NCBI RefSeq assembly: GCF_017348835.2
Contig: NZ_CP071375.1
From: Escherichia coli
GTDB lineage: Bacteria; Pseudomonadota; Gammaproteobacteria; Enterobacterales; Enterobacteriaceae
Reading direction: 5' to 3' (one strand)
DNA length: 64,000 nt
The notes beneath the pieces are model-generated. The model was given only the letters and a program-made list of their open reading frames with translations. It was not told where the DNA came from and searched no databases. Positions 17,953-64,000 of the stretch are shown one piece after another. Position numbers and translations under genes: made by a program. How positions within the stretch are numbered: position 1 is the stretch's first letter; each line of letters starts with the position of its first letter.

Positions 17953-17960
17953 GCTAAGTG

Positions 17961-18037
17961 GCCGGATAAGGCGTTAACGCCGCATCCGGCAATGGTGAAC
18001 GATGCCTGATACGACGCATCACGCGTCTTATCAGGCC
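17961..18037. repeat. REP/BIME element (two inverted REP units)
   Basis: GCCGGATAAGGCGTTAACGCCGCATCCGGC and GCCTGATACGACGCATCACGCGTCTTATCAGGCC are read directly between ypfN and ypfH. Confidence 0.85.
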
Positions 18038-18051
18038 TGGTAATCTGTCTT

Positions 18052-18750
18052 TTACATCATTTCAATCACATCATCATCGCCAGGCTTACCGCCACTTAGC
18101 GCTTCGTCGAAATAATGTTTCGGAATGGTATAACGCAAGTGATCCAGGGCAAATTGCATACTGCGATTGTCGATCGCATGGCCTAAATCCTCCACGATAT
18201 CCAGCGTCACGTCACCACCGGCACTGATTAACGCTTCCTGCGCCGCAACCGCATGCGCCAGATCGATAACCGGATCTTCACCGCCATGAATCAGGTGAAT
18301 TGTCGTTGCTGTAGACGCGGTTTCCGGCAGGCTCGCATAGCGTCCGTTAAAGGCAATGACGCGCGAAGCAAGGCCCGGTTCGGCTTTAATGCTCTCCAGC
18401 GCCATAATCGCGCCTTGTGAGAAACCAATTAGCGCCGTGGCGTTAGCCCCTACTCCGCTCTGTTTCTGCCAGTAGCGCACCGTCTCAATAAACGTCGGCA
18501 TGATGGCATCCACACGCGCCTGGCGATTATCTTCCGTAATACCCTGCACCGAAAACCACTGACGCCCCGCCGGATTACCGCTCGGCTCCGCGCCTCCGAC
18601 ACTCACCACCAGCGCATCCGGGAACAACGGTGCAAACCAACTGCCAATCTCCCCCATCGCTACTGGGTTATCACCGACGCCGTGAAAAAGCAGCAATAAC
18701 TGTTGCGCAGGTTTATCCGGGCTTTGAACAACAAAATGGTCATGTTTCAT
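18052..18750 (-). CDS. ypfH: Esterase/phospholipase-carboxylesterase family protein YpfH
   Basis: The track ORF is trimmed to MKHDHFVVQSPDKPAQQLLLLFHGVGDN... (232 aa). It has a GFSQG nucleophile-elbow motif. Confidence 0.9.
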   Translation of the reverse strand: MKHDHFVVQSPDKPAQQLLLLFHGVGDNPVAMGEIGSWFAPLFPDALVVSVGGAEPSGNPAGRQWFSVQGITEDNRQARVDAIMPTFIETVRYWQKQSGVGANATALIGFSQGAIMALESIKAEPGLASRVIAFNGRYASLPETASTATTIHLIHGGEDPVIDLAHAVAAQEALISAGGDVTLDIVEDLGHAIDNRSMQFALDHLRYTIPKHYFDEALSGGKPGDDDVIEMM

Positions 18751-18823
18751 GGCGAACTCCTTAACTGATGTCATTAATTTTACGCCGCTGACTCACAATG
18801 ACCATGGGAGAAAATTGAAGGAG

Positions 18824-20839
18824 TCAGTGAAAAAATTGCCATTGCGTTATGCGATCGCGCAGACGCTCAGTGCGAACCTCATTAAGTGCGAACAGCGCCT
18901 GTGCGGCCTCTTCCCGCTGACGGACCAGTAACATCTTGCGGCCTGAAAGTTTAAGTGTGGTACATAACTGCGCATCACTGGCGTTTTTCTGTAAACGCCC
19001 ACGCAGCGCCGGTAATGCCAGTTCACTGGTTTGTAGCAGACGCAATAAGCAACCTAACGACGTTAATAGCGGACGATGAGCGAAAGCAAAACCGGCCAGT
19101 TCAAGCCAGTCGTCGTCAGAAAGCACGATATCGTTTAGTGGATCAACAGGAAGCATTTCGCCATTCCACTGCGCGAGAGCTTGCGCATCGCGACGTAAAC
19201 GGTAATGCTCACGTTCAGCCAGCTGTTTACCCGCATCACTCATCGGTAACAGCGCCATCGCCGTATAGCAACCGCTGCTGGCTTCACGATGATTACCCAT
19301 TCGCACCAGCACAAAACCGCAGCGTTGCCAGAAACGCCATAACTCCCCGGTGTAACCAAAACTCACCGAAAGATAGTCGAGGCCAGGCCTATATTGCAAA
19401 GCGCTGGCAATGAGCTGTTGCCCAACGCCTTCGCGCTGACGCGCCGGATGGACTGCAATCCGGCTGACCCGCCGTCCACGCAATGTCGCCGCCAGTGGAT
19501 TGCTGCCGTGCGCCGCCAGCGACTGGGCCACCAGATTACCCCGCGGGCGACGAAAACCTGCCCATACCGCCTGACTGAGTTCTTGAGATAATCCACCCTC
19601 ATCCACCAGCCACAGCGCTCCGGCAATCTCGTTTTCGCCAGCCGCCTGTAAAAAATGTTGCCCTGGTGCATCCATCATCCGGCGTAAATCCAGCGGCGAA
19701 GTCCGGTAGTGCGCACCAGACAATAACTGATAAACCTTTAACGGCGTTTCTGGCTCGATTCGCCATAACGTCTGTTCAAATGCGGAAATGACAATATTGC
19801 CTTGTGGTGTATGGGTGAAGTTTTCATCGTCAAAAACCAGTGCATTACTAACCATTTTTTCCAGCGGGCATCCCTGTGCCCAGCGGATCGGCTGTTGTAG
19901 TTCAAAACGGTGTAAATGCGGAAAGCGAGCGCAAAATTTCAGCAAAAAACCACGTCCGGTGCCTTCGTAGCCCTGCACCGTAGTGGTTAACAACGTTCGA
20001 GGAAAACGCGATACCAGTTGATGCAACAACGGCGCAGGTATGGCTGCGGCTTCGTCGACCACCAGCCAGTCGGCTTGCTCATCGCTGGCTAACAAGGCAT
20101 CCGGCGCAATAAAGCGAAACTTCTCGCCCGCAAATTGTGCCAGTACATCCGTTGCCGCTTTTGCGGGCGCAGTGACAATCGCACTACCCGCAATACGAGA
20201 AATGAGTTGCCCTGCCAGCGCCGATTTACCGCGCCCACGCGCAGCAGTTACCGCTGCCACGCCCGACGGCATGGTCAGTAGCTGCTGTAAGAGTTGCTGT
20301 TGTTCTGGTTGTGGTGCGCCGGTCGCGGGGTGCCAGTCAGTACGGGGAGTAAAATGCGCCAACGAGAACGGCTGGTTTTGCCGCCAGAGGATAGCGTCGT
20401 TATCCGCCGTAAGTACGCGTTTGAAATGCTGGACAAAATGCGGCGTCGCAATAGGGTCAGGGCAATCACTCCAGCGCAGCGAGTCGGCATCAGGTTGGTT
20501 TTCCCACTCTTCCCATACAGGGAGTAACAAAACCAGCCAGCTTCCCGCTTTCAACGTTCCGCTAAGTGCGGCAAAGGCAGCGGCATCAAAGCCGTGGCGG
20601 GCGTCGAATACCGCATGCCGGAACTCGCGCCCAAGTAAAGTTTGTAGTGCCGAGGGAGAACAGTGGTTTTCAGCGACTGGCTGCGGCGAAATCCACAGCC
20701 AGTCGCCAGGTAAGGCATCACGCAACTTAAGCGCATGATCAAAACACCAACCCTCTTCCCCGCTCAACACCAGCAAGCGGCGGATCCCTTCACGTTTCAT
20801 TTGCGCTGTTAATGTGTGAAGCGCAGTCAGTTCAGCCAT
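18824..20839 (-). CDS. tmcA: tRNA(Met) cytidine acetyltransferase TmcA
   Basis: 671-aa ORF with a helicase-like P-loop (ARGRGKSA) and a C-terminal GNAT domain, at the K-12 ypfI/tmcA position. Confidence 0.93.
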   Translation of the reverse strand: MAELTALHTLTAQMKREGIRRLLVLSGEEGWCFDHALKLRDALPGDWLWISPQPVAENHCSPSALQTLLGREFRHAVFDARHGFDAAAFAALSGTLKAGSWLVLLLPVWEEWENQPDADSLRWSDCPDPIATPHFVQHFKRVLTADNDAILWRQNQPFSLAHFTPRTDWHPATGAPQPEQQQLLQQLLTMPSGVAAVTAARGRGKSALAGQLISRIAGSAIVTAPAKAATDVLAQFAGEKFRFIAPDALLASDEQADWLVVDEAAAIPAPLLHQLVSRFPRTLLTTTVQGYEGTGRGFLLKFCARFPHLHRFELQQPIRWAQGCPLEKMVSNALVFDDENFTHTPQGNIVISAFEQTLWRIEPETPLKVYQLLSGAHYRTSPLDLRRMMDAPGQHFLQAAGENEIAGALWLVDEGGLSQELSQAVWAGFRRPRGNLVAQSLAAHGSNPLAATLRGRRVSRIAVHPARQREGVGQQLIASALQYRPGLDYLSVSFGYTGELWRFWQRCGFVLVRMGNHREASSGCYTAMALLPMSDAGKQLAEREHYRLRRDAQALAQWNGEMLPVDPLNDIVLSDDDWLELAGFAFAHRPLLTSLGCLLRLLQTSELALPALRGRLQKNASDAQLCTTLKLSGRKMLLVRQREEAAQALFALNEVRTERLRDRITQWQFFH

Positions 20840-51721: not shown

Positions 51722-53965
51722 TCAGGCACTTTCGCGAATGGGTTCGATTTCATTCAGCGTATCAATTAACGGTTGCGGCTTACCAATAAGATAACCCTGC
51801 ATATAATCGATCCCCAAAGAGAGCACTGCCTCGCGGATCTCTTCGTTTTCAACGTACTCTGCCACTACCAGCATTTTCTTCATTCGCGCCAGGTGGCAAA
51901 TCGATGCCACTATCTGATAATCCAGACTATTTGACACAATATTGCGGATAAAACTGCCGTCAATTTTAAGCAGATCGGCATTCACATTTTTAAGCCGCGC
52001 ATAGCTGGCGTAGCCGGTGCCGAAATCATCAATCGCAATCTGGCAGCCTAATTCCTGAAGATGCTGCAAGGTGATTTGCGCCTGCTTAACATTGGTCAGA
52101 GCATTACTTTCGGTGACTTCAAAAATAAGTTGCCACGCTTCAATCTGATATTTAGCCAGCAACTGACTGACTTCAACAGGAAAACGAGCCTGACATACCG
52201 AGGTTGGAGACAGATTAATAGCAAAACGGTGAGCGGGCATCTTCGCTCTGTTTTCAGCCATAAATTGCAGCGTATGCTCAATGACCCACATGTCGATACT
52301 CGACGATAAACCAAATTCGTGCGCGACCGGCAAGAAGCTATCGGGGCTGATCAGTTCATCATTCTCACCTTTCATGCGCAGAAGAATTTCATGGTAAACA
52401 TCACCACGCATACCGGTAATTGGCTGGGCCATCAGGAAAAAATGGTTGTGTTCCAGCGCCTGCTGTAGTCGATTCATCATCGCGACTTTATCTTTCAATT
52501 CGCGTTGCAAATACATTGCCCCGCGACGCTGCATATTTTCCGGGGCGTTGGTCACGATGGAAAGTTCGGCGACCGTATTTAGCTCTCCCAGCAGCAGGTA
52601 GATATAATTCACTGGCGAGCGCACATAGCAGTAACTGACGCCAATCTGCGGTTGCATCGGCATGCCATCCCAAAAGAAACGAAATTGCTTGAGATGGCTA
52701 TCCAGTGCGGTAATGCGCTCCTGGTGCGATTCTGTATTCAGTCGCAGCGCGAGATCGTTACCCGAAAGCTGATAAACATCTTCACCCGGTTCCAGCAATG
52801 GTGACAGCCAGTGAGAAAGTTTTTGCTTGTATTGAATCCGCAGCATGATGCCATAGTTTTTAACCAGCATTTCCATGCCAGGGATGCGTAAATAACAAAG
52901 CGCAGACCAGGGGGCATCACGCAACGCGCGATTCAGGGCGCGAACATTTGGCAGATGAACCACCGGGTCCACATACGCAAGCCGCTGAATGCGTCTGACT
53001 ACCGTTCTCTGACGGGTTGCCAGTACAGCCATATAATTGACAATAAAAGAGAATACCAGATAACTGGAGGAGGTTATGGTCAGCTGCGTGGTATAGCCGG
53101 GATAAATGGGAATGTAATTTTGATAGCTGTGGATGCTGATCATCAACACGACCGCCCAGAGCAGTGAAATCAGCTTATAACCATAGCGCATCGCTCCCCA
53201 CATCATCAGGGGCAGCAATAATGACAAGGTATAATTGGTGCTAAAAATTGTGCTTTTTTCATTTAACGGCATGCATAACAGCAACAGTAAAGCACCTAAT
53301 GCCAGTAGCCAGAGTGCGAACTCTTTTTTGGTGACTTTGACATCAACCTGCTGTTTTAATTGCGAATAATAACTACGTAAATAAAACGGATTTCGAACTA
53401 CCCGAATGATGAAGTAGCACAGCGGGACACCAATCAGATTGCCCACCAGTAAGGCCTGATAATTGATTAAAGTCCCGAGGTTAAAAGGCATGACACCGAC
53501 CAGATTTTCTCTGCTCGCCAGTAATCCTACAAATGCAGCAAACTGGAAAAGTATCAGAAACAGCGTTGCAGGAAACACAATCTGCCAGAATATACGCTGG
53601 GAAATTAAACGGGTATCACCATGTGAAACGTTGTTACGCCGGGGAGTAAAGACCCTGTAACCGCCCCAACAGAGAATGATAATGATGATAAAATTAGCCG
53701 TTAATGAGAGCGTTTCGTAAAAACCCAGCTCTGCATATTTGCGGACAAAAATCCCTAAGGCGATCCCTGGCAATGCCGCCCAGCTGAAAAACATCATCAT
53801 GCTGATCATCAGTGCCAAAGGCAGATAAAAGAGAAAAACCTCACCGGAAGAAATATGCGCGAAAGTATTAATGTGGGCGAAAATAGGCAAGATTAAAGAA
53901 GGCAGGAACAGCGGAAGCCCCCACCATTTATCACGTATTTTTATATAAGTTGCATTCAGTTTCAT
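51722..53965 (-). CDS. pdeF: c-di-GMP phosphodiesterase PdeF/YfgF (MASE1 membrane domain, degenerate GGDEF, EAL)
   Basis: 747-aa ORF with an N-terminal polytopic region and a C-terminal EAL domain (EVTES...DDFGTGYAS), at the K-12 position. Confidence 0.93.
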   Translation of the reverse strand: MKLNATYIKIRDKWWGLPLFLPSLILPIFAHINTFAHISSGEVFLFYLPLALMISMMMFFSWAALPGIALGIFVRKYAELGFYETLSLTANFIIIIILCWGGYRVFTPRRNNVSHGDTRLISQRIFWQIVFPATLFLILFQFAAFVGLLASRENLVGVMPFNLGTLINYQALLVGNLIGVPLCYFIIRVVRNPFYLRSYYSQLKQQVDVKVTKKEFALWLLALGALLLLLCMPLNEKSTIFSTNYTLSLLLPLMMWGAMRYGYKLISLLWAVVLMISIHSYQNYIPIYPGYTTQLTITSSSYLVFSFIVNYMAVLATRQRTVVRRIQRLAYVDPVVHLPNVRALNRALRDAPWSALCYLRIPGMEMLVKNYGIMLRIQYKQKLSHWLSPLLEPGEDVYQLSGNDLALRLNTESHQERITALDSHLKQFRFFWDGMPMQPQIGVSYCYVRSPVNYIYLLLGELNTVAELSIVTNAPENMQRRGAMYLQRELKDKVAMMNRLQQALEHNHFFLMAQPITGMRGDVYHEILLRMKGENDELISPDSFLPVAHEFGLSSSIDMWVIEHTLQFMAENRAKMPAHRFAINLSPTSVCQARFPVEVSQLLAKYQIEAWQLIFEVTESNALTNVKQAQITLQHLQELGCQIAIDDFGTGYASYARLKNVNADLLKIDGSFIRNIVSNSLDYQIVASICHLARMKKMLVVAEYVENEEIREAVLSLGIDYMQGYLIGKPQPLIDTLNEIEPIRESA

Positions 53966-54508: not shown

Positions 54509-54601
54509 CGGTTACCTTCTCCACTTTCACAGAACATAACGGCACTTTGAACCGCCCCGGAAATCCTGGAGACTAAACTCCCTGAGAAAGAGGTAAACAG
54601 G

Positions 54602-54928
54602 ATGACTAAAAATACTCGTTTTTCCCCCGAAGTCCGTCAGCGGGCGATTCGTATGGTTCTGGAAAGTCAGGATGAATATGACTCACAGTGGGCGGCAATT
54701 TGTTCCATTGCCCCAAAGATTGGCTGTACGCCGGAGACTCTGCGTGTCTGGGTTCGCCAGCATGAGCGGGATACCGGGAGTGGTGATGGTGGACTCACCA
54801 CCGCTGAACGTCAGCGTCTGAAAGAGCTGGAACGTGAAAATCGTGAACTGCGCCGCAGTAACGATATCCTTCGCCAGGCTTCCGCTTATTTTGCGAAGGC
54901 GGAGTTCGACCGCCTCTGGAAAAAATAA
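54602..54928 (+). CDS. IS3-family transposase OrfA (HTH/leucine-zipper)
   Basis: 108-aa [26 protein letters not shown]... ending at an A6 run followed by TAA. Confidence 0.95.
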
Positions 54929-55815
54929 TGCCACTGCTGGATAAGCTGCGTGAGCAGTACGGGGTCGGACCGGTATGCAGCGAACTGCATATTGCCCCGT
55001 CAACGTATTACCATTGTCAGCAACAGCGACATCATCCGGATAAACGCAGTGCCCGTGCGCAGCACGATGACTGGCTGAAGAAAGAGATACAGCGCGTATA
55101 CGATGAAAATCACCAGGTATACGGTGTGCGTAAAGTCTGGCGTCAGTTGTTACGGGAAGGTATCAGAGTGGCCAGATGCACTGTGGCACGTCTCATGGCA
55201 GTTATGGGACTTGCCGGTGTTCTCCGGGGTAAAAAGGTCCGCACTACCGTCAGCCGGAAAGCCGTTGCCGCATGCGACCGCGTAAACCGTCAGTTCGTGG
55301 CAGAACGTCCAGACCAGTTGTGGGTGGCTGATTTTACCTGGGTAAGCACATGGCAGGGCTTCGTTTATGTGGCGTTCATCATTGATGTGTTCGCCGGATA
55401 CATCGTGGGATGGCAGGTCTCATCATCCATGGAAACAACATTCGTGCTGGATGCACTGGAGCAGGCGTTGTGGGCCCGTCGGCCGTCCGGCACAATCCAT
55501 CACAGTGATAAAGGTTCTCAGTATGTATCGCTGGCCTACACGCAGCGGCTTAAGGAAGCCGGATTACTGGCATCAACAGGGAGTACTGGCGACTCGTATG
55601 ACAACGCGATGGCTGAGAGCATCAATGGTCTTTACAAAGCGGAGGTAATACACCGTAAGAGCTGGAAAAACCGGACAGAAGTGGAACTGGCCACACTAAC
55701 GTGGGTGGACTGGTATAACAATCGACGATTGCTGGAAAGGCTGGGCCATATTCCTCCGGCAGAAGCAGAAAAAGCTTATTATGCTTCCATCGGAAATAAT
55801 GATCTGGCAGCCTGA
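54928..55815 (+). CDS. IS3-family transposase OrfB (DDE catalytic domain), in the -1 frame relative to OrfA
   Basis: 295-aa ORF with DDE residues in WVADFT, HHSDKGSQY and NAMAESIN. The -1 frame is open from 54862, so an OrfAB fusion by programmed frameshifting at the A6 run is possible. Confidence 0.95.
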   Translation: MPLLDKLREQYGVGPVCSELHIAPSTYYHCQQQRHHPDKRSARAQHDDWLKKEIQRVYDENHQVYGVRKVWRQLLREGIRVARCTVARLMAVMGLAGVLRGKKVRTTVSRKAVAACDRVNRQFVAERPDQLWVADFTWVSTWQGFVYVAFIIDVFAGYIVGWQVSSSMETTFVLDALEQALWARRPSGTIHHSDKGSQYVSLAYTQRLKEAGLLASTGSTGDSYDNAMAESINGLYKAEVIHRKSWKNRTEVELATLTWVDWYNNRRLLERLGHIPPAEAEKAYYASIGNNDLAA

Positions 55816-55857
55816 GTTCACAGATAAAACACTCTCCAGGAAACCCGGGGCGGTTCA

Positions 55858-55964
55858 AACTCGTACAGTGGCGTACCACTGGGGTCCATTCCTTCAAGTC
55901 TCAGGGAAGCCTCTGCTTTGCGGAAGCCCTCAATGCGTAACCGTGTATAGGGAGTCCTAGACAT
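55858..55964 (-). pseudogene. 5' fragment (35 codons) of a VbhA-like (Fic-associated) antitoxin gene, cut by the IS
   Basis: The reverse strand reads AAGGAAAAAC ATG TCT AGG ... = MSRTPYTRLRIEGFRKAEASLRLEGMDPSGTPLYE, running straight into the IS right end. The A.ASLRLEG..PS motif is typical of VbhA-family antitoxins. Confidence 0.55.
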
Positions 55965-56045
55965 GTTTTTCCTTTGAGTTGCAGGAGTGAGGTTCGCTCA
56001 GTGAAAGCGTCAGCTCACGCAACCTCGTTAACTGACGCGCGTGAT

Positions 56046-57446
56046 TCAAGATTTATTATTACCCGATAAGCTATCACCGGCAAAATCATCATGTTCGCGG
56101 TTATCCCGACGAGTAGCTGTTTGTTTACTTATCTGAGTCGCCAACTCCTCTCCAATAGTTTGTTGGGCACGAGAAGAACTGCTACTTCGCTTCATTCTCT
56201 GGTACTCAGCAGCTCCGTTAGCCATGCTGCTTCCCATATGGCTTGCCATGCGGCCAGCACGCGAGAATGAAGCAAACCCCTGACTTCCTCCACTGGCGCT
56301 ACCTGAACTGCTCCCTGCAGACGAACCACTGTAACCGCCTGAGGTTTGGCCTCCAGAAGTATCTACAGAACCGGTATCTTCCCCGCCGCCAAATCCTCCA
56401 CCGGAACCGCCTCCGCTGCCTGAACCAGATTCTTCGTCCATGGCAGCTTGCGCAGACTCGAATGCTGCCTTTAATGCTGAAGCTCCGCCGCTGACTTGAG
56501 CTGATGCCCCCATTGCCATTGCTCCAGCACCGCTGATGGCAGTAGCGGCTGCGCCGGTAATCATACCCGCCCCAAATCCACCAATCCCTTGTAAAGAAGC
56601 CCCTCCTACAACACCTGATAACAACAGTGGTAGCTTATTAGTTAATACTAACAGGATAATTGACGCCAGAAGCAAAACTATAAGACTATTAAGATCAGGA
56701 ACATCATCTTTAATAAGAGAAAAATATTGATCTATAAATGATTGTCCAATCCCAATAATTAATGTCATCGTGAATAATTGAATGCCAATCGATAAAACAG
56801 TTCGTAAGTAATTAATTGCTATATCAGAGGTCCATTTCGAACCACCAAACCCAAGCAATATAACTCCTGCATAACATAACACCCATGCAGAAACCAACAT
56901 GATTAGCATATTTATCGCTATAAGGGACATCACTACCAAAACGATTATCGCGACTGTTATCATAATGGTGGATATCATTGGCGACCAAATTGATGCGGCT
57001 GAACTGATCTTGGTTAATATCGCAAACGCCATATCAACTATGCTTGAGGGAGAAATACCAATACTTATTTCTAAAGCGTTTGCTGCAAGTTGTCTCATTG
57101 AATTAATTATGGATTGCGATATGGATGGACCGTTGATTAAAAGATAATAAAAAAAACCAATGACGGCAAAAAAGCGAACTATTTCAGCAAGTACCCCTGT
57201 CAACCCTTCCCCTTGCATCGCCATCATACCAAATGTCCAAACCATACTTATTAATACCAGCCCCCAGAAGAGCCAATTTGCATAGTCAGCAATTACTGCT
57301 GTCCATGTACTGGCTACTTGTTGAAACTTATCTAATAAAGTATCAAGTAGCCCGCTACTATCTAATTGACCAGCATAGGCATTAATAGAAAAGAAAAGTA
57401 TGATACCTAAAAAGGTGAGCTTACTTACTATTTTCATGATTACCAT
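56046..57446 (-). CDS. trbL: TrbL/VirB6-family type IV secretion membrane protein with a Gly/Ser-rich C-terminal tail
   Basis: 466-aa ORF with a signal peptide, multiple TM segments and trbJ-trbK-trbL synteny. The low-complexity tail reads GSGSGGGSGGGFGGGEDTGS.... Confidence 0.8.
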   Translation of the reverse strand: MVIMKIVSKLTFLGIILFFSINAYAGQLDSSGLLDTLLDKFQQVASTWTAVIADYANWLFWGLVLISMVWTFGMMAMQGEGLTGVLAEIVRFFAVIGFFYYLLINGPSISQSIINSMRQLAANALEISIGISPSSIVDMAFAILTKISSAASIWSPMISTIMITVAIIVLVVMSLIAINMLIMLVSAWVLCYAGVILLGFGGSKWTSDIAINYLRTVLSIGIQLFTMTLIIGIGQSFIDQYFSLIKDDVPDLNSLIVLLLASIILLVLTNKLPLLLSGVVGGASLQGIGGFGAGMITGAAATAISGAGAMAMGASAQVSGGASALKAAFESAQAAMDEESGSGSGGGSGGGFGGGEDTGSVDTSGGQTSGGYSGSSAGSSSGSASGGSQGFASFSRAGRMASHMGSSMANGAAEYQRMKRSSSSSRAQQTIGEELATQISKQTATRRDNREHDDFAGDSLSGNNKS

Positions 57447-57613
57447 TCTCGTTTAGGGCTTGGTTTATTATTACTCCGTAGAGCACATTTATCGTATTTA
57501 TGTTCATCAAATTTATTATCTGGCATCGATAAACAATCTTTATCATTTTTATCGCAAGAACATATGGCCAATAAACTGATCAGAATAAATACAATCAAAA
57601 AATTATCTTTCAT
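57440..57613 (-). CDS. Small lipoprotein in the TrbK (entry-exclusion) position
   Basis: The track ORF 57440..57631 is trimmed to an ATG at 57613 preceded by GGTGAGGAA, giving MKDNFLIVFILISLLAICSCDKND... with a signal peptide plus Cys. The TrbK assignment is positional only, because I see no sequence similarity to RP4 TrbK. Confidence 0.55.
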   Translation of the reverse strand: MKDNFLIVFILISLLAICSCDKNDKDCLSMPDNKFDEHKYDKCALRSNNKPSPKREW

Positions 57614-57624
57614 TCTGCGTTTCC

Positions 57625-58419
57625 TCACCAAATTCGCTTCGGGCTTGGTGTATTCTCTCCAGCTAACGCTTTTTCATCAGCGGCTATCTGTTGTGATTCT
57701 TTATCTGCCTGAGCCTGTGCCAGTGTTGCTGCAGCGTTTTGTTGGGCTACCAGAAGTGAGCGGATTTGCAGTAACTGATTTGTCTGTGCACTGGCAAGCT
57801 GGTTTGCCGCCTGAATAGCTTCCATTTGCCCTTGTGCGCCGCTTGCCTGAGTTTGTAATTCGGCAAGATTATCAGCATCGCTCTGCAGGGTGTTCTGCTG
57901 CTCGTCAATTACCTTAAATACTGCGTCATTGGCCTTTTTACGCGCCCCTGAGCTATTCTGTTCAGCTTCACGCAGTGCACTAATTTCAGACGCGGTACAT
58001 TCAACATTGCTGTTAAAGCAAGACGATGTCCTGTAGTAGTTAACATCCTGATAGCGTTTCAGGTACGCATCGAGACTCCCGGCCTGATTCTTGTAGTAAT
58101 TAAGGGTATCCTGCACCTGCAACAATTTATTAATTGTTGAATTTGCCTGGTCCCAGATATAGGCCGCAGGAGCTACGGTGTTCTGCAGCATGTTTTCATA
58201 CTGCTGCAGCTGCGTCTGGTACTGCTGGATTTGTTTAGTCACAGCCTGAACGTTGTTAACTGCGCTGATTGTGGTCTGAACCACATTAGTGCCATCAATA
58301 ACGGGAATTCCGGCCTTCACCGGTAATGCCATGACGGACGCCACGAAAGGAACTATTAAAGCTTTTTTAGCGGCTAAAATCCCTCTTTGTGATGAAACCA
58401 CTCGGAACTTTAAATTCAT
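57625..58419 (-). CDS. trbJ: TrbJ/VirB5-family type IV secretion protein
   Basis: 264-aa ORF with a strong RBS (AAGAGGTGA), a signal peptide and the coiled-coil-rich Q/N-rich sequence typical of P-type TrbJ. Confidence 0.8.
   Translation of the reverse strand: MNLKFRVVSSQRGILAAKKALIVPFVASVMALPVKAGIPVIDGTNVVQTTISAVNNVQAVTKQIQQYQTQLQQYENMLQNTVAPAAYIWDQANSTINKLLQVQDTLNYYKNQAGSLDAYLKRYQDVNYYRTSSCFNSNVECTASEISALREAEQNSSGARKKANDAVFKVIDEQQNTLQSDADNLAELQTQASGAQGQMEAIQAANQLASAQTNQLLQIRSLLVAQQNAAATLAQAQADKESQQIAADEKALAGENTPSPKRIW
58366..58378. promoter_or_regulatory. KorB-operator-like palindrome TTTAGCGGCTAAA inside the 5' end of trbJ
   Basis: An exact 13-mer matching the IncP O_B consensus TTTAGCSGCTAAA lies 41-53 nt downstream of the trbJ ATG. 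Confidence 0.6.
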
Positions 58420-58462
58420 TTGCTCACCTCTTTTTCAACAGATTAGTAATATTTAACACTCT

Positions 58463-58476
58463 GTCTGTTAACAGAC
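58463..58476. promoter_or_regulatory. Perfect 14-bp palindrome GTCTGTTAACAGAC between traJ-like and trbJ (candidate operator or promoter-overlapping site)
   Basis: Read directly. It lies 44-57 nt upstream of the trbJ ATG and contains a TTAACA -35-like hexamer. Confidence 0.3.
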
Positions 58477-58499
58477 GCAGGTATATAGGAAACCACACA

Positions 58500-58853
58500 T
58501 TATTTATCCAAGATTTTATCCATAATGTTCCTTAGTTCTTGCCGAGTTGATTCTATTTTCGCAAGCAAGGTTCTTATCAGTGTGGGTGAAAAATCAACTG
58601 TTCGAGGATCATTTGCGAGCCATAATTTAAGTAATCCGCCAAGTCTTCCAAGATCAGCATTTACTCGGCTAAGTTCATTAACCTGTTTTATATCTACGAT
58701 AGAATCAACCTGATAACCCATTGCAACTCTACGAACAAAACAGGCAACACTTAATCCAGATGCTTCTGCATTTTCTTGGATGAGAATTTTTTCTTCGGGT
58801 AAACAATAAACTTTTATTGGCGTACTATTTTTTCTAGTCTGAGTAACTTTCAT
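58500..58853 (-). CDS. traJ: TraJ-like oriT-binding relaxosome accessory protein (IncP TraJ / MobC-type RHH)
   Basis: The track ORF 58500..58865 is placed at an ATG at 58853 preceded by GGAGAG. TPIKVYCLPEEK...VNADLGRLGGLLKLWLANDPRT...LLAKIE is colinear with RP4 TraJ as I recall it (PPIKVYCLPDER...INGDLGRLGGLLKLWLTDDPRT...LLAKIE). Confidence 0.85.
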   Translation of the reverse strand: MKVTQTRKNSTPIKVYCLPEEKILIQENAEASGLSVACFVRRVAMGYQVDSIVDIKQVNELSRVNADLGRLGGLLKLWLANDPRTVDFSPTLIRTLLAKIESTRQELRNIMDKILDK

Positions 58854-58868
58854 ATAGCTCTCCATACA

Positions 58869-58984
58869 GGCGGTAGCCTGGCAGCCTCGCAGAGCAGGAC
58901 GCCCTTGAGCCGCGATGCGGCGAATAGGGAGTGGTAAAGTTGGAACACCGTAGCGGTGGGCCCACTTTACATGTCCTGCCCTGC
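58869..58984 (+). other. IncP-type origin of transfer (oriT); predicted nick between 58978 and 58979 on the + strand
   Basis: The sequence is colinear with the RP4/RK2 oriT as I recall it. It shares an identical 18-mer CAGCCTCGCAGAGCAGGA (58882-58899), GCGAATAGGGA, GGAACACC, the hairpin CACCG-TAG-CGGTG, GGTGGGCC and the nick core GTCCTG/CCC (RP4 ATCCTG/CCC). Its position upstream of traJ is the same as in RP4. Confidence 0.8.
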
Positions 58985-59246
58985 AGTTGCCGTTGTATAT
59001 CTGTGCACGACAATGTGTATTTCAGTGTACAGGATGTGTTTTCTTAGCGTATTAATATAGGATTACTGGAGTAAATTTCTGCAGCAAATGTGTTTTTTGC
59101 AAGGAAACTATATTTCTCCCTTTTGAAAATGACCTTTAGTAGTTATAAATGGACGTCCACCAACTGTATTTATGTTTCGATATATTGTAAGAAGTCTTTC
59201 ATTTTCCGATGCACTTTTTTACTTACCTTGTCAGAGCATGTGCATT

Positions 59247-59271
59247 GCAGATTTTAGCGGCTAAAATCTGC
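59247..59271. promoter_or_regulatory. KorB-operator-like site embedded in a 25-bp perfect palindrome GCAGATTTTAGC-G-GCTAAAATCTGC
   Basis: Read directly. The core TTTAGCGGCTAAA is at 59253-59265, in the non-coding region between oriT and the iterons. Confidence 0.65.
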
Positions 59272-59397
59272 CTCCCTATGCCTAAAGCTAGGGGCGTACC
59301 TCATATGTCATAAAATCTACCTCAAGTGTCAATATACCAAACGTGTAAGTAATCTCTTCTTCTGGCGTACAACCATCGGTCTTTGGCCGATTCTAGA

Positions 59398-59431
59398 TTT
59401 GAAAGCGCCTGCTCAGGCAGGTGATTTCAAA
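59398..59431. other. Imperfect 15-bp inverted repeat (hairpin) next to the iterons; candidate oriV structural element
   Basis: TTTGAAAGCGCCTGC-tcag-GCAGGTGATTTCAAA has 13 of 15 positions complementary. Confidence 0.35.
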
Positions 59432-59481
59432 GCCTGAATATACTGGTTGATCCTGAATAACCTGCAAAGGAGTTAAAAAAT

Positions 59482-59565
59482 CAGGCCTCTGTAGCACACT
59501 GGCGGGCCGTTACAGCACATCACCGGGCCGTAACGACACGTTACCGGGCCGTTGTAGCTCGTTTT
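59482..59565 (+). repeat. Iterons: three good and one degenerate 21-bp direct repeats (candidate IncQ-type oriV)
   Basis: The units start at 59503, 59524 and 59545: CGGGCCGTTACAGCACATCAC, CGGGCCGTAACGACACGTTAC, CGGGCCGTTGTAGCTCGTTTT, with exact 21-bp periodicity. A degenerate unit at 59482 matches 12 of 21. The last unit overlaps the repC-like stop codon. Confidence 0.7.
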
Positions 59566-60314
59566 ATCCTAGAATTTTGTATCTCAATGCCAATCGCTAG
59601 AAATTGTTTGCTATCTTCTTTTAATCTCCGCCGATAGTTACGTAATGTCATATTATTGGTACCTTCACCACTGACAGCTAAAATTAATGTATCAATATGC
59701 CAGCCGCCTTTAGGATCGTGCTTATGTGTTAATATATGACGTGCAACTGCTTGGCTAATACCATGCTGGAGACGAGCAATAGGACCTGGATCATGATGAA
59801 AATGCAAATCTCGCTTCAACAACATTACCAATGCAACACCCAAGCGTACTCTCCATAGGTTACGTTCACCACCAGTTAGAGGATTACGCCTAGTCATTGG
59901 TGAGGGTACGACATGGTCAATTAAACCGCCTAGAATGCAATAACCGTTTTTTTCTAAATCTGGCGTTACTATTTCAACAGTTGCCACACGTAGATCAACG
60001 AGTAGTTTTTTAATTCGATCATAACTGTATTGTGCATCGGATAGAGTTCGGCGTACTTTCGCTGGATCTACTAATAACTCGATTCCTCCATCAGAAATTT
60101 CTCGACGTTTCTCGGCCACATAGAGCATTGTTTCCACAATATCCGCATGACGTTGTCCTAGTCTTCCGGTAACTCGACAACGACCAAAACTAGTCTCCAT
60201 CCACTGCCCCTTCAGCGCCAAGGGACGTTGACTTGGTTGGTACAGAATGACTCTAGCCTGCAGAGCTGTGCTAGTAGGTGTAACTTTATTACCAGTTATC
60301 ATTTTCTGCACCAC
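59541..60314 (-). CDS. repC: IncQ RepC-like iteron-binding replication initiator
   Basis: 257-aa ORF directly downstream of the repA-like gene. The C-terminal half (...HILTHKHDPKGGWHIDTLILAVSG...RNYRRRLKED...) aligns by eye with RSF1010 RepC (...RLCGWIDPGKTGKASIDTLCGYVW...RKRRQRVREA...). The start is either GTG 60314 or ATG 60302. Confidence 0.7.
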   Translation of the reverse strand: MVQKMITGNKVTPTSTALQARVILYQPSQRPLALKGQWMETSFGRCRVTGRLGQRHADIVETMLYVAEKRREISDGGIELLVDPAKVRRTLSDAQYSYDRIKKLLVDLRVATVEIVTPDLEKNGYCILGGLIDHVVPSPMTRRNPLTGGERNLWRVRLGVALVMLLKRDLHFHHDPGPIARLQHGISQAVARHILTHKHDPKGGWHIDTLILAVSGEGTNNMTLRNYRRRLKEDSKQFLAIGIEIQNSRIKRATTAR

Positions 60315-60330
60315 TCAATGAAGACATACA

Positions 60331-61146
60331 TTATTTTGCTATTTGTTTTTTATTCTTCGATTTGAGTTGCGTTATCCTTAATACTCCTCCCTCATGTCTC
60401 TGTAACCAACGTTCTGGCGTACGTTCTCCATAATTTGCTTTATTTATTCCAAATCTAACAAATTGACCTCGAACATCATCAGAAATATCATACGTCTTCG
60501 CTTCTAAGGCGGTCATGCCCGCCAGATAAGATTGCCACCGTATATTATCAACCAGGACGCTACTACCCCTGCTTGCCTGCTGTATATCACCAACTCCCAT
60601 CGTGGCAGAGCCTTTGTTTGAATGGTGTAGAAATATAATCGAACACCCTGTATCAGCAGCAATACCTTCTAGCTTTCCAATGACTTTGGACATTGCTCCG
60701 CTATTATTTTCATCTTCCTGGTGGAAACGGCGAAGAGTATCCAAAATTATTAACCGTCTACTTTTTGAAATCTCATTAATCAAGTTGCTCCAACCTGGCG
60801 AGAAAATATTTGGACACTTCCCTACCAAAGGTTCGACAAGTAGCTTATCAGCAACAATCTGCTGCTGACGTGCTGTTAGATATTTTCCCAAAGCATATAG
60901 ACGATGGTGAATGATGGTTGCAGAGTCCTCCACAGGTAAATATGCCACTAACCCCGTTGGATATTCACCAAAGTTTAAAAGATCTACACCACAAGTAATC
61001 TGCACAGCCAGTTGCAATGCCAGCATTGACTTTCCAACGCCTCCCGGAGAAACAATCGCTCCGATAGTACCAATAGCCAAATTAGGCAAGACGTAATCAA
61101 TTGGTTGCGGCTTAGCTTCAAATGCTTCCATTATGTTCAATGACAT
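60331..61146 (-). CDS. repA: IncQ RepA-like hexameric replicative helicase (RecA/AAA fold)
   Basis: 271-aa ORF. IDYVLPNLAIGTIGAIVSPGGVGKSMLALQLA...LDTLRRFH...IAADTGCSIIFLHH..KG...QQASRGSSVLVDNIRWQSYL is near-colinear with RSF1010 RepA as I recall it. Walker A and B motifs are present. Confidence 0.85.
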   Translation of the reverse strand: MSLNIMEAFEAKPQPIDYVLPNLAIGTIGAIVSPGGVGKSMLALQLAVQITCGVDLLNFGEYPTGLVAYLPVEDSATIIHHRLYALGKYLTARQQQIVADKLLVEPLVGKCPNIFSPGWSNLINEISKSRRLIILDTLRRFHQEDENNSGAMSKVIGKLEGIAADTGCSIIFLHHSNKGSATMGVGDIQQASRGSSVLVDNIRWQSYLAGMTALEAKTYDISDDVRGQFVRFGINKANYGERTPERWLQRHEGGVLRITQLKSKNKKQIAK

Positions 61147-61151
61147 TGCTG

Positions 61152-61382
61152 TTACCTACCTAAAACAATACCGGGTCTGGCTGCTTTAAACATTGCTGAT
61201 TTACGATCCGCAATCCACTGTTCCACTTCGGATAACTGCCATGCAACATTTCGGCTCGTAAGTGCTATACGGCGAGGAAACTCGCCTCGCTGTTCAAGGT
61301 TATAAATAGTGCGGGCTGACAATGGGATCATTTCCAGAAGTGTTTTTCTGTTAATGAGCGTGCTATGTGCCTTTGTTTGCAT
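61152..61382 (-). CDS. alpA: AlpA-family (MerR-type HTH_17) regulator/excisionase
   Basis: The track ORF 61152..61403 is placed at an ATG at 61382 preceded by GGAGGAAGG, giving MQTKAHSTLINRKTLLEMIPLSARTIYNLEQRGEFPRRI.... This is the typical AlpA/Xis motif, located 5 nt upstream of repA. Confidence 0.8.
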   Translation of the reverse strand: MQTKAHSTLINRKTLLEMIPLSARTIYNLEQRGEFPRRIALTSRNVAWQLSEVEQWIADRKSAMFKAARPGIVLGR

Positions 61383-61459
61383 CTGCCTTCCTCCTGTTTC
61401 CAATCAGGCCTATACAATGCCAAGCATTACCACTTGCTAAAACCTATTCATTGGCTAAA

Positions 61460-62431
61460 ATGGTTGACATGAAAATTACTATCTGGGAAGGCTGTGACCT
61501 CACAGTTGCAGCTGCAATTAAATTATTTGTAGAGCGTAGTTCTCCGTACTCCATATTTTCACGGAGGTATCCAATACTGCGTCTCATACAGGAAGTTATT
61601 GATCCAGCAGTAGCTGATTATGTAAATTCCCTGCCACCAAGTCATAAAGACTACATTTCTGGAGTAAATCTAGGATTTAGTGAAGTACTTAAAAAATTGG
61701 GTTTAAACGTCGTAGTACAGGCACAAAGACTTCTTTTGCGTAATTTCGTTCTGACTTTAGATCAACAAACTTCTCTTGATAAATGCTTTACCGCTACGAT
61801 TGAGTCTCTTATTGAATTAGTCAGTGAATGCGCATCCAAGCGGCCGAAGAAATCCTCTCCTGCAAAAGGAGTAACTATAAATTCACAGCGTAAGCTCGGT
61901 TATTGCGAGTTCTGCGGTAATCTAACCGAATTTTCCAAGTTGATCAGTGAGATATCAGAATTTGTTGCTAACGATAATGAGTTCCCCGTTCATGAAAAAC
62001 AGGTCCTTAGTCATCGATATTGTTCTGACCATAGGCCCAAACTCACCAATGGTCTATGGAATCCCAAATACAGACAAGGAAAGCGGTCTCTCGAACAGTT
62101 CAATAAAGAATTAATAAGGCTTAGACGGCAATGCGCTAAACCTCATAAAGCTAACGCAAACACAGGGGATATATTGATTGATACATATTTTCATGAGTGG
62201 ATGCAGGGTCAAACTTTAACCCCAGCAGATCTAGATAAACTTAGGAATATCGCCAGACGAATGGTTGACTCCAAATTCACTGATACTAAGAAAAAAATAA
62301 TCATATTAAAACACCAAGGTTTTAACCAGTTTGAAACCGCACAGGTTTTAGAAAAAAATCACTACACAACTATGACAAAGCAGGCTGTGTCCAAGGCCTT
62401 AGCGTCTGTGAGGAAAGAATTTTATATTTAA
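61460..62431 (+). CDS. Hypothetical protein with a CxxC...CxxH motif and a C-terminal HTH-like (sigma70 region 4/LuxR-like) segment; divergent from alpA
   Basis: The long track ORF 61367..62431 has its first 31 codons overlapping alpA, so I place the start at 61460 or 61469. No good RBS is visible and the start is uncertain. Motifs are GYCEFCG...YCSDH and ...ILKHQGFNQFETAQVLEKNHYTTMTKQAVSKALASVRKEF. Confidence 0.55.
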   Translation: MVDMKITIWEGCDLTVAAAIKLFVERSSPYSIFSRRYPILRLIQEVIDPAVADYVNSLPPSHKDYISGVNLGFSEVLKKLGLNVVVQAQRLLLRNFVLTLDQQTSLDKCFTATIESLIELVSECASKRPKKSSPAKGVTINSQRKLGYCEFCGNLTEFSKLISEISEFVANDNEFPVHEKQVLSHRYCSDHRPKLTNGLWNPKYRQGKRSLEQFNKELIRLRRQCAKPHKANANTGDILIDTYFHEWMQGQTLTPADLDKLRNIARRMVDSKFTDTKKKIIILKHQGFNQFETAQVLEKNHYTTMTKQAVSKALASVRKEFYI

Positions 62432-62853
62432 AATAGTATATCCACGAGCTATTATGGTGGCAGTTTAAGTCTTAATACCATCCACTTTATTGAATTATAA
62501 CCAGCCACTTACGAAGGTTTTTCGCGATTACCCTGCTTCAAATTGATGATTTTGAAAATACAGTATTATAGTTTATTGTTTGTAGCGCAGCTGTAAGCGT
62601 TATGCAAAATGGATCACAGTGATACGACCTCACCAGTAAATCACTGAAGCCGATCTGTAATGACATAGAACGAATTGGTTTTATGGTTATGCAATGGCTC
62701 ATCCCCTTACTTGTCCCTGACCATAAAAAGCATTCGCTTTCCTGAAAGCAAGTCTAAGCCAAGGGGCGTTTACAGTTGTCTTATCTTGACTCATTAGGTA
62801 CTGGCTTAATGATTAGAATCATGTCGGTGGCATTTAGGTCCAAATATGCCCAA

Positions 62854-62872
62854 AATTTTAGCAGCTAAAATT
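62854..62872. promoter_or_regulatory. KorB-operator-like palindrome, variant centre (AATTTTAGC-A-GCTAAAATT)
   Basis: A 9-1-9 perfect palindrome is read directly with core TTTAGCAGCTAAA at 62857-62869, in a non-coding gap. Confidence 0.55.
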
Positions 62873-63008
62873 CGTCTTCTCATGTAGGGTCAAGAAGCTT
62901 ATGACTAAACCTATTGATTATGTGAATTACCTTGTGAGTAATACTCGTAGGATGGAATCTTCCAAAACTCTGACAATTCACTCTGAATGCATGGTAACAA
63001 AGAACAGT

Positions 63009-63638
63009 TTAAACCATGGTCTGTTCAGCGTTAAATTTCTCAAGATAGACTTCCATTTCGCGAGTCCACCTAGGGGTAGGTACCGAGGTGATCATTAGCC
63101 AAGGAAACCACCATACAAGCATGAAGAGTAACATAAGCGGTGCGATCATTTCGGCCGAAGAATGAGAAACTATATACATAATGAATAATATTAGTAGAAC
63201 TGTGTTTACAATCTGACCTACCAGAAAAAGACGCCAGCGAAAACAATGCCATTTCCTGTTGAACACAATCCGTCCATCCCGTTCTTCGAGCCAGTTACGC
63301 CACGGCTTGAGATAACCAGCCCGCAACCCATAACGATCACACATTATTACAGCCAAATCCTGCAGCCGATAATTATACAAGCCTGTGAGCCGATAAAGGC
63401 TGCGCTGACGAAGCTCACGCTTTGCCAGACGGACCGCATTTTTATTCAAATATGGCTGTGTCAGCATTTGCTCTAGCCGGCGCTTCCTAAGATTGAGTAG
63501 TCCACGAAATACACTTCCAGATTCAGCATTAATTACTCTGTGACGAACTACACCGAGTGCAATATAGATACACAGCAATAGCCAGCCGGTCTTAGGGTAT
63601 TGATTCATCCATTGTATAATTACAGACAACTCAGGCAC
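63009..63638 (-). CDS. Hypothetical membrane protein (one N-terminal and two C-terminal TM helices, basic central domain), GTG start
   Basis: 209-aa track ORF with hydrophobic segments TGWLLLCIYIALGVV, LFLVGQIVNTVLLILFIMYIV and MIAPLMLLFMLVWWFPWLMI. I recognise no family. Confidence 0.6.
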   Translation of the reverse strand: MPELSVIIQWMNQYPKTGWLLLCIYIALGVVRHRVINAESGSVFRGLLNLRKRRLEQMLTQPYLNKNAVRLAKRELRQRSLYRLTGLYNYRLQDLAVIMCDRYGLRAGYLKPWRNWLEERDGRIVFNRKWHCFRWRLFLVGQIVNTVLLILFIMYIVSHSSAEMIAPLMLLFMLVWWFPWLMITSVPTPRWTREMEVYLEKFNAEQTMV

Positions 63639-63689
63639 TTTTATTTTTCCTTTTTATGCAATCCAGATAAAACCAGTAAAGATTCAGTA

Positions 63690-63708
63690 AATTTTAGCGG
63701 CTAAAATT
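63690..63708. promoter_or_regulatory. KorB-operator-like palindrome AATTTTAGC-G-GCTAAAATT upstream of the membrane-protein gene
   Basis: A 9-1-9 perfect palindrome has its core TTTAGCGGCTAAA at 63693-63705. It lies 52-70 nt upstream of the GTG at 63638 and 54 nt downstream of the int stop. Confidence 0.65.
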
Positions 63709-63761
63709 GCTCTCCTGGCGTAGAAAAAAGAAGCACACCAACTTAACTTACTGATTATTAA

Positions 63762-64000
63762 CTACTTACTAGTCCATTCATCAATCATATTCGCCCAATC
63801 TTGTAGCATCTCAGCCCTCTGCTCACGATATTCTGCCTTGTTATAAACAGCTCGTACCCCTTTTTGTTCATGGGCAAGGCTCTTCTCAATCCAGTCAGTA
63901 TTGTACCCGGCCTCATGTAGCAAGGTGCTGGCTGTACGCCGTAAGTCATGGGGACCAAACTTAGGCAACAACTCCCCTTCTTTCTGAGCCAGGCGATACG
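63762..64000 (-). CDS. int: Tyrosine recombinase (P4-type integrase), C-terminal about 79 codons; the 5' part lies right of the window
   Basis: The frame is open to the window edge. It reads ...YRLAQKEGELLPKFGPHDLRRTASTLLHEAGYNTDWIEKSLAHEQKGVRAVYNKAEY..., containing the HxLRxT box, LAH and the catalytic-Tyr region. Confidence 0.85.
   Translation of the reverse strand, partial: YRLAQKEGELLPKFGPHDLRRTASTLLHEAGYNTDWIEKSLAHEQKGVRAVYNKAEYREQRAEMLQDWANMIDEWTSK

Follow-up and report, generated by a model that had tools for sequence, protein, structure and literature searches.

A probable remnant of a PIME1-type integrative mobilizable element at guaA of Escherichia coli and its candidate KorB operators

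Introduction

At the right-hand end (positions 55858-64000) of a 64,000-nucleotide stretch of Escherichia coli DNA (assembly GCF_017348835.2, contig NZ_CP071375.1; this whole stretch is called the window below) lies an island in which a P4-type integrase gene, a RepA helicase gene with iterons and transfer signals of the IncP type stand together. The locus raises the question of which family of mobile elements it belongs to, how it was cut short and what links it to IncP plasmids. A sequence-only reading of the same DNA had described this mosaic, which proved to be real, and had likened its layout to that of the GIsul2 islands, supposing that an insertion sequence (IS) had cut this copy back. 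We confirm here the guaA site, the related integrase, the shared general plan and the cutting back by an IS, but find that the element is a different one. With a probability of about 0.88, the region is the int-proximal 9.4 kb (8.1 kb of which are inside the window) of an integrative mobilizable element of the PIME1 type, inserted at the guaA 3' end and bearing an IS-marked deletion and operator sites (O_B) for the IncP protein KorB.

The Pseudomonadota integrative mobilizable elements (PIMEs) were defined in a January 2026 preprint by Perta et al. (bioRxiv 10.64898/2026.01.12.698999), in which the PIME1 subfamily is characterized by genes in the orientation of the integrase and by a luxR gene placed in the regulatory region divergently from alpA, GIsul2-like elements form a sister subfamily, and the accessory regions hold immune systems. 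The type element, PIME1EcRHB23-C07, measures 22.2 kb and carries traJ without a relaxase, plus an IncP-like origin of transfer (oriT) with a 17-bp inverted repeat and a conserved nic site. According to the same authors, int, luxR and alpA are each essential for PIME1 excision, which is induced by the IncP-1 plasmids pB10 and pKJK5 and not by IncN, IncX or IncL/M plasmids, and repA plus a downstream iteron origin constitute a working replicon (the functional oriV was mapped in PIME1Mm, and the homology of repA to that of RSF1010 was remarked on). The E. coli PIME1 was induced by pB10 and pKJK5, yet mobilised by neither, and the copy number of pB10 dropped only when PIME1 excised and replicated, a "potential incompatibility"; how the helper is sensed and why it is incompatible were left open (bioRxiv 10.64898/2026.01.12.698999).

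Results

Insertion at guaA and assignment to PIME1

We compared the DNA with complete E. coli genomes by megablast, which yielded 305 records with a match, 30 of them with a single match covering at least 80% of the query. From position 43858 to its end, the window differed from the chromosomal sequence of the pig isolate E. coli PE164 by only 4 mismatches over 20 kb. In PE164, int is complete (396 aa; Pfam Arm-DNA-bind_3, Phage_int_M and Phage_integrase), the 3' end of guaA lies about 300 bp beyond it, and a 16-bp attachment (att) sequence, AAATCATTCCCACTCA, spans the guaA stop codon; in window-equivalent coordinates, int continues to about 64952 and the att core falls at about 65254-65269. 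The att repeat includes GAGTGGGA, the published integration site of GIsul2 (PMC9376610). An intact relative, 98.8% identical, was found in strain Br_167_kylling, where perfect direct repeats of the same 16 bp (AAATCATTCCCACTCA) stand 13.7 kb apart, one beside yfgI and the other over the last guaA codons and the stop codon, and a second one (94.2% identical) in strain RM10042 has these repeats 22,187 bp apart. Thus, the rest of int, the guaA 3' end and the direct repeat were all located through PE164 and the relatives, as expected from an int gene that points inward with its att site beyond the right edge of the window. The G+C content of the island (42.3%) differs from that of the remaining window (52.1%).

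The genes and signals on which the assignment depends are the following.

63762-64000, minus strand: 3' part of int, P4-type tyrosine integrase gene (PE164 annotation; Pfam domains of the full protein)
61460-62431, plus strand: gene of a LuxR-family regulator of 323 aa, divergent from alpA, the PIME1 hallmark gene (names of homologues)
61152-61382 or 61403, minus strand: alpA, probable excisionase or regulator (Pfam Phage_AlpA, 7.5e-13)
60331-61146, minus strand: repA, RepA-family helicase (Pfam AAA_25, 9e-29)
58883-58984, minus strand: IncP-type oriT and traJ leader (inverted repeat, nic-like site, Rfam, alignments)
58500-58865, minus strand: traJ, oriT-binding relaxosome accessory protein (Pfam NikA-like, 8e-23; NCBIfam TraJ equivalog, 2.6e-47)
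57625-58419, minus strand: trbJ, VirB5-like protein (NCBIfam TrbJ equivalog, 7.5e-114)
56046-57446, minus strand: trbL, VirB6-like mating-pore protein (Pfam TrbL, 1.4e-29; NCBIfam TrbL_P equivalog, 2.4e-80)

Every gene and feature of the order given in the sequence-only reading was found in its place with the list of open reading frames (ORFs) and domain searches. The five PIME1-defining genes all had Pfam and NCBIfam matches (int once completed from PE164) and all lie on the minus strand, that is, in the integrase orientation, while luxR (61460-62431, plus strand) is divergent from alpA (61152-61382, minus strand). The oriT is IncP-like and has, as in PIME1EcRHB23-C07, an inverted repeat of 17 nt (58934-58950/58954-58970), with a nic-like GTCCTG/CCC at 58973-58981 of the plus strand, 8 nt beyond the inverted repeat; a match to the Rfam traJ-II family at this place reached 86.9 bits (gathering score, 40). 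The relative in RM10042, with its 22,187 bp, agrees in size with the published 22.2 kb of the type element, and the relatives of the island carry defence cargo beyond trbL, as PIME1 elements do. This copy differs from them in that it is truncated by an IS and has no distal att, cargo or yfgH-yfgI, and in that its RepA is 14 C-terminal residues shorter. The guaA-side att is present in PE164 just beyond the window, and the distal one, gone here, is present in the intact relatives.

As to the strain itself, the window has pdeF (51722-53965) as an intact ORF of 747 aa, whereas RefSeq marks this gene in PE164 as a pseudogene interrupted by an internal stop. Within pdeF lie two of the four positions (52606 and 52908) at which the window and PE164 differ, so the strain of the window is a sister of PE164 and not PE164 itself.

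KorB operator sites

In IncP-1 plasmids, the ParB-family protein KorB serves both in global regulation and in partition. The 13-bp palindrome TTTAGCSGCTAAA is its operator, O_B. Binding of KorB at 12 palindromic 13-bp operators has been described (PMC10954446), and the protein acts both as a repressor and as a sliding clamp (PMC11790492). A pattern scan of the 64-kb window disclosed four O_B, three exact and one with one mismatch, when 0.11 were expected by chance, and all of them are within the island (no strand is assigned to these sites).

58366-58378: site 1 (TTTAGCGGCTAAA), inside the 5' end of trbJ
59253-59265: site 2 (TTTAGCGGCTAAA; extended palindrome GCAGATTTTAGCCGCTAAAATCTGC), between oriT and the iterons
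62857-62869: site 3 (TTTAGCAGCTAAA, one mismatch), downstream of luxR
63693-63705: site 4 (TTTAGCGGCTAAA), 57 bp downstream of the int stop codon

The same trbJ position holds an O_B in RP1 (26687, with trbJ starting at 26664), in p591229_1 (40203), an enterobacterial (E. coli) IncP-1-like plasmid (CP073604), and in the GIsul2 of plasmid pHUSEC411like (12234); because of this shared position, site 1 can be considered inherited from IncP trb DNA. Sites 2, 3 and 4 sit in island-specific DNA, and an equivalent of site 2 was found in many related loci. When one mismatch was allowed, 12 occurrences of the pattern were counted in p591229_1 and 8 in the initial 50 kb of RP1, whereas chance would produce none in either. 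A promoter scan was uninformative (22 sites, 14.9 expected), except for a -10-like TAAAAT that overlaps site 3.

To see how far these sites are conserved, we used 80 loci encoding homologues of the LuxR-family protein (43-99% identity) from gamma-, beta- and alphaproteobacterial genomes. Of the exact O_B, 140 were located within the core-gene spans, which total 596 kb, and 7 in the 780 kb of flanking DNA. In 60 of the 79 loci that could be evaluated, an O_B with at most one mismatch, the equivalent of site 4, stood downstream of luxR (or of alpA, in loci with alpA placed after luxR), usually 22-52 bp past the stop codon, when the chance expectation computed from the degeneracy of the pattern is about 6e-4 per locus. 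Since the flank sequences were anchored on the pattern, it is the frequency of its occurrence, and not the conservation of alignment columns, that is the meaningful statistic; after collapsing related flanks, the site was kept in 25 classes of unrelated ones. Where extra cargo stands between the regulatory module and int, the O_B remains on the regulatory side. Recurrent O_B were also seen directly after traJ and in the origin region, and 51 of the 52 loci with an IncP-type TraJ or TrbJ had an exact one. Among the 14 loci without an exact O_B are loci from Pseudomonas, whose TraJ and TrbL have no more than 33-38% identity, and others in which neither tra nor trb gave a match.

These data bear on whether the O_B could be passive leftovers of captured IncP transfer DNA, without any role. 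Such an origin fits the sites at the trbJ 5' end and after traJ, which are placed exactly as in IncP plasmids, as well as a PIME1 relative in Morganella that retains only the traJ- and trbJ-side sites. However, two or three of the sites are in island-specific intergenic DNA, beside luxR/alpA/int and in the stretch from oriT to the iterons, the site on the luxR/alpA side recurs in the loci and flank classes given above and in two gene arrangements, far beyond chance, and the loci without an exact site include those that have no IncP-type transfer genes. We thus consider a purely passive origin unlikely, without being far-fetched. As for the conserved sites being a physical link between PIME1 and its IncP helper, we put the chances at about even: KorB would load beside luxR/alpA/int and between oriT and oriV, and it would there either alter the expression of the excision switch or serve for partitioning or titration. 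In the copy studied here, the presence of an IncP plasmid would probably still lead to KorB occupying the four sites. Literature searches brought up no paper linking KorB to GIsul2 or to PIMEs, and there is no mention of KorB or its operators in the PIME preprint (bioRxiv 10.64898/2026.01.12.698999) or of KorB in the GIsul2 paper PMC9376610.

Several observations were made on the surroundings of the sites. A predicted membrane protein gene lies between sites 3 and 4:

63009-63638, minus strand: membrane protein (predicted), 209 aa (hydrophobic segments)

Its product had no Pfam, NCBIfam or PADLOC match, and among the related loci the gene was confined to an enterobacterial subgroup. It is bracketed by two 57-nt segments (about 62842-62898 and 63678-63734), 72% identical and each centred on an O_B, as if cargo had been inserted at, or along with a duplication of, the operator beside the regulatory module; cargo is found between the luxR/alpA-side O_B and int in other relatives too. 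Such a bracketing of the membrane protein gene by two sites in partly repeated segments holds for the E. coli subgroup of the loci. Five Pseudomonas LuxR/AlpA/Int islands have distant relatives of TraJ and TrbL (33-38%) in a different arrangement and no O_B, and may represent a branch adapted to a non-IncP helper. In the Morganella relative (GCA_003390295.1), likewise located at guaA, a pair of large ORFs separates int from luxR; past trbL comes a toxin gene of the ptaRNA1 type that GIsul2 also has, and then genes for DUF2971 and a caspase-like peptidase.

Insertion sequence, deletion and lost cargo

The left boundary of the island is formed by an IS, next to which only the beginning of a helix-turn-helix (HTH) gene is left.

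54548-55857, plus strand: IS of the IS3 family, 1310 bp, left boundary of the truncated island (terminal inverted repeats, orfA/orfB)
55860-55964, minus strand: remnant of an HTH gene, first 35 codons, a backbone gene adjoining trbL (identical to the N-terminus in Br_167_kylling)

The terminal inverted repeats of the IS were read directly (TGAACCGCCCC.../...GGGGCGGTTCA), and its orfA/orfB pair contains an Rfam ALIL frameshift pseudoknot (54883-54999, 120 bits). An IS629-like IS of the IS3 family is thus present where the sequence-only reading had placed IS629, a name that the annotations, which give only "IS3 family", do not confirm. Full-length identical copies exist on many plasmids. No target-site duplication was seen at its flanks (CTT and AAC), which fits a deletion mediated by the IS next to itself as well as two IS copies having recombined.

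The window is colinear with the Br_167_kylling chromosome until 37-39 bp beyond yfgG; then comes the IS, and the island resumes inside the HTH gene. Relative to Br_167_kylling, the IS replaces an interval of about 5.7 kb that comprises yfgH, yfgI, the distal att, a small ORF, the genes for a DUF2290 protein and a helicase and, besides a resolvase pseudogene, the larger part of the HTH gene. The loss of the chromosomal yfgH-yfgI interval had been anticipated, and both genes are indeed missing from the window. The HTH remnant had been regarded as a truncated antitoxin gene. Its full-length counterpart, of 144 aa, has a Pfam HTH_3 domain and the PGAP name "HigA family antitoxin", and a truncated gene of this kind is present, but in both intact relatives (Br_167_kylling and RM10042) the 144-aa gene adjoins trbL with no toxin gene beside it, so that it looks like a backbone gene and not like the remnant of a toxin-antitoxin (TA) pair. 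A second copy of the att core was found neither in PE164, which holds just one, nor in the window, which has none. With a single att site remaining, this copy should be unable to excise, and it is probably a stranded, immobile remnant.

The cargo of the intact relatives is of another kind than the TA toxin, ars, CR2 and sul2 genes that had been supposed lost from this copy, and of which there is no trace in the window, nor any sign of a former presence. In Br_167_kylling (16043-18871 of its locus) it consists of a two-gene set, helicase plus DUF2290, followed by the resolvase pseudogene; both proteins gave full-length matches to PADLOC defence models (4.9e-298 and 3.1e-81). RM10042 carries an ABC-three-component/AAA ATPase set, a Fic/DOC protein gene and other genes. 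The intact relatives hold anti-phage cargo instead.

Comparison with GIsul2

GIsul2 was reportedly dealt with by Nigro and Hall in 2011 and by Harmer and colleagues in 2017. As reference we took the complete copy on plasmid pHUSEC411like, and DNA comparisons were made with two GIsul2-bearing plasmids. The similarity looked for by BLASTN exists, but it amounts only to patches of 67-69% identity covering 9-14% of the query. At the protein level, the identities were 87% (Int), 79% (AlpA), 62% (RepA), 54% (TrbJ) and 45% (TrbL), and BLASTP found no GIsul2 counterpart for the products of the ORF in the repC position, traJ, the LuxR-family gene, the membrane protein gene and the ORF in the trbK position. 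Both elements have the target GAGTGGGA at the 3' end of guaA, closely related Int and AlpA proteins (the alpA of GIsul2 promotes excision; PMC9376610), trbJ-K-L after the replication genes and an O_B in the trbJ 5' end. An IncQ-type RepC and the cargo of ptaRNA1 toxin, ars, CR2 and sul2 are in GIsul2 and were not found in the island. In contrast, luxR, traJ and an O_B by the regulatory module are in the island and not in GIsul2.

That the island might be a GIsul2 copy stripped of toxin, ars, CR2 and sul2 by an IS-mediated deletion is suggested by the insertion site, by the Int and AlpA identities and by the shared order int-alpA-repA-[initiator]-trbJ-K-L. However, the DNA identity is low and patchy, RepA, TrbJ and TrbL share only the identities given above, the repC-position ORF, traJ, luxR and the membrane gene are without a GIsul2 counterpart, the 35-codon remnant belongs to the backbone HTH gene of PIME1 relatives and not to a ptaRNA1 toxin locus, and the nearest intact relatives hold defence cargo, not ars, CR2 or sul2. 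We regard this possibility as very improbable. Judged by these comparisons, the island is a cousin of GIsul2 and not its derivative, having in common the integration module and the general plan.

Transfer module and candidate helper

The description of oriT, TraJ, TrbJKL and O_B as IncP features held good. Besides traJ, trbJ and trbL, the module has a small ORF:

57440-57631, minus strand: ORF in the trbK position, 63 aa, with a signal-peptide/lipobox-like N-terminus (ORF list; position only)

This ORF had no Pfam or NCBIfam match, and its equivalent in the Br_167_kylling annotation is a hypothetical protein of 57 aa. The other components were closer to those of p591229_1 than to those of RP1: TrbJ was 85% identical to the former, 56% to RP1 and 54% to GIsul2, TraJ 69% and 54% to the two plasmids, and TrbL 59-62%, 47% and 45% to p591229_1, RP1 and GIsul2. 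Likewise, the oriT region matched p591229_1 in 96 of 120 positions and RP1 in 88 of 123, with identities of 80% and 72% in the core. Taken with the failure of pB10 and pKJK5 to mobilise the E. coli PIME1, this nearness makes p591229_1-type plasmids a candidate natural helper. Small plasmids of 3-10 kb from Serratia, Pantoea, Klebsiella, E. coli and E. marmotae also contain the oriT segment (58869-59013), at 76-91% identity; they carry no annotation there and may be mobilizable via the same relaxosome as the island.

With respect to IncP-1 plasmids (RP4/RP1, p591229_1), the island shares the homologous oriT, TraJ, TrbJ and TrbL and identical O_B operators, but it has only four transfer genes and no trfA/oriV, no korA-incC-korB and no KorA operator (O_A). 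An IncP-type oriT, traJ, trbJ, trbL and O_B of this kind could have been left behind by an integrative and conjugative element (ICE) or by an IncP plasmid that had integrated, formerly equipped with a complete type IV secretion system. Nevertheless, the intact att-bounded relatives measure only 13.7-22.2 kb and lack a relaxase, a coupling protein, the other trb genes, trfA and korA/korB, and the same reduced gene set is repeated in the 80 loci of three proteobacterial classes, so that such a remnant is even more improbable than a stripped GIsul2. An int from an unrelated P4-like prophage or satellite, with att sites of its own that exclude the genes at 55.9-63.7 kb, has next to no probability in our view: the integrase is of the P4 type (Arm-DNA-bind_3) and alpA is a prophage-type regulator, but the only att repeats of the relatives bracket the whole set, from int through the cargo beyond trbL, and structural, primase and packaging genes of phages or satellites were not found.

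Replication module

Downstream of repA there are an ORF in the position of repC and a putative origin.

59541-60302 or 60314, minus strand: ORF in the repC position, 253-257 aa (position; iterons at its stop codon)
59026-59565, minus strand: putative oriV (AT-rich tract, repeats, iterons)

The putative oriV, which includes much of the 675 bp between the repC-position ORF and traJ, comprises an AT-rich tract (59026-59225, 62-78% AT), a 2x21-bp repeat (59297-59331), a 23-nt inverted repeat (59390-59439) and three 21-bp direct repeats, or iterons (ACGGCCCG...), at 59503-59565, which overlap the stop codon of the repC-position ORF. No DnaA box was found in the origin region within one mismatch. 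RepA ends 14 residues early in the alignment with relatives that are 99% and 92% identical; in these, the 3' end of repA overlaps the start of the next ORF, so the early stop may uncouple the translation of the two genes.

The product of the repC-position ORF had no Pfam, NCBIfam or PADLOC match. It was tried as an IncQ RepC and rejected: BLASTP gave no match to the RepC of GIsul2, the best E value of a PDB sequence search was 0.63, and hhalign of the two family alignments, of 28 loci each, returned a probability of 13.5%. Among the 80 loci, the place after repA is taken by this family in 28 and by a true IncQ-type RepC in another 28, never by both, and this mutual exclusion argues for an equivalent function. 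The only significant PDB matches of an AlphaFold model (predicted local distance difference test, pLDDT, 64) were to domains 2-3 of the Vibrio initiator RctB (E 6.4e-4), which are winged-helix domains of the iteron-initiator type; given the low confidence of the model, this lends weak support. We propose with moderate confidence that the ORF encodes an iteron-binding initiator. In public databases, its family is mostly labelled "ABC transporter ATPase" without a matching Pfam domain or ATPase motif, probably a propagated misannotation.

The replication genes had been described as the RepA/RepC plus iterons design of IncQ plasmids. Like RSF1010, the island has a RepA-family helicase, then a gene in the initiator position, and about three iterons of 20-21 bp; unlike it, the island is chromosomally integrated and has neither a recognisable RepC nor a RepB primase, none being found among the island proteins by Pfam and NCBIfam searches. 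Hence, the helicase and the three 21-bp iterons of that description stand, but similarity to RepC was not detected, and "IncQ-like design" is a fair term while "IncQ replicon" is not, since the primase and the RepC homologue were not found.

Regulatory module

The LuxR-family protein had no Pfam or PADLOC match, and was recognized through its 373 homologues, many of which are named LuxR family. In an alignment of the family, C149, C152, C188 and H191 are invariant (CxxC...CxxH) and N-terminal to a C-terminal HTH, a pattern that suggests a zinc-binding module. The AlphaFold model of this protein was poor (pLDDT 63; predicted template modelling score, pTM, 0.41).

Discussion

A life cycle can be proposed for elements of this kind, the first four steps of which come from the preprint's experiments on close relatives, while we infer the fifth and the roles of KorB. 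The intact element would be silent at guaA until the arrival of an IncP-1 plasmid, whereupon its excision between the two 16-bp att repeats would require Int, AlpA and the LuxR-family regulator together, and the resulting circle would replicate at the iteron origin via RepA, probably plus the repC-position protein. TraJ would bind the inverted repeat of the IncP-like oriT, and a relaxase and the mating pore of the helper would transfer the element. Finally, TrbJ, the TrbK-position protein and TrbL would probably replace pore and exclusion components of the helper. In the copy described here, the IS-marked deletion would have taken the distal att, the cargo, most of the HTH gene, yfgH and yfgI.

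In the intact relatives, the O_B would most likely couple the island to its helper, as a regulatory input or as borrowed centromeres. KorB may feed into the luxR/alpA/int switch and act as a sensor of the helper; alternatively, the excised multicopy island may use IncC-KorB partition and titrate KorB, which would explain the drop in pB10 copy number. There is a parallel in SGI1, which carries mimics of the parS site of its IncC helper; these mimics are bound by the ParB of that helper and make the island more stable and the plasmid less so (PMC10954446). Both would be integrative mobilizable elements with sites for a helper ParB, and the drop of pB10 in the presence of replicating PIME1 can be compared with the effect of SGI1. 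However, the two elements have no homology, and SGI1 senses its helper via the activator AcaCD, whereas the helper protein would be the repressor KorB in PIME1.

Several points weigh against the interpretation as a whole. The right end of the island, including its att, is outside the window, and PIME1 membership was established by the published criteria and the size-matched relative of 22,187 bp, the type element being compared by its description. The O_B at the trbJ 5' end is a case of simple inheritance from IncP DNA. The Morganella relative lacks an O_B by luxR, its only ones being those next to traJ and trbJ, so the luxR-side site is not universally required. In addition, no match to O_A was found in the island, and KorB is a repressor, so that an activating role would need a double-negative circuit. 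Lastly, the initiator role of the repC-position ORF is deduced from its position, the iterons at its stop codon and a low-confidence model.

In itself, this copy is ordinary: the family was already described, and a remnant with one att and no cargo adds little to it. PIMEs, on the other hand, disseminate anti-phage systems among Proteobacteria, as the GIsul2 branch does with sul2, and the part worth pursuing is that of the conserved KorB operators and the candidate helper lineage. If true, the O_B link would speak both to how these islands sense IncP plasmids and to how they lower the copy number of their helper. As for the missing natural helper in the case of the E. coli PIME1, p591229_1-type plasmids provide a concrete candidate.

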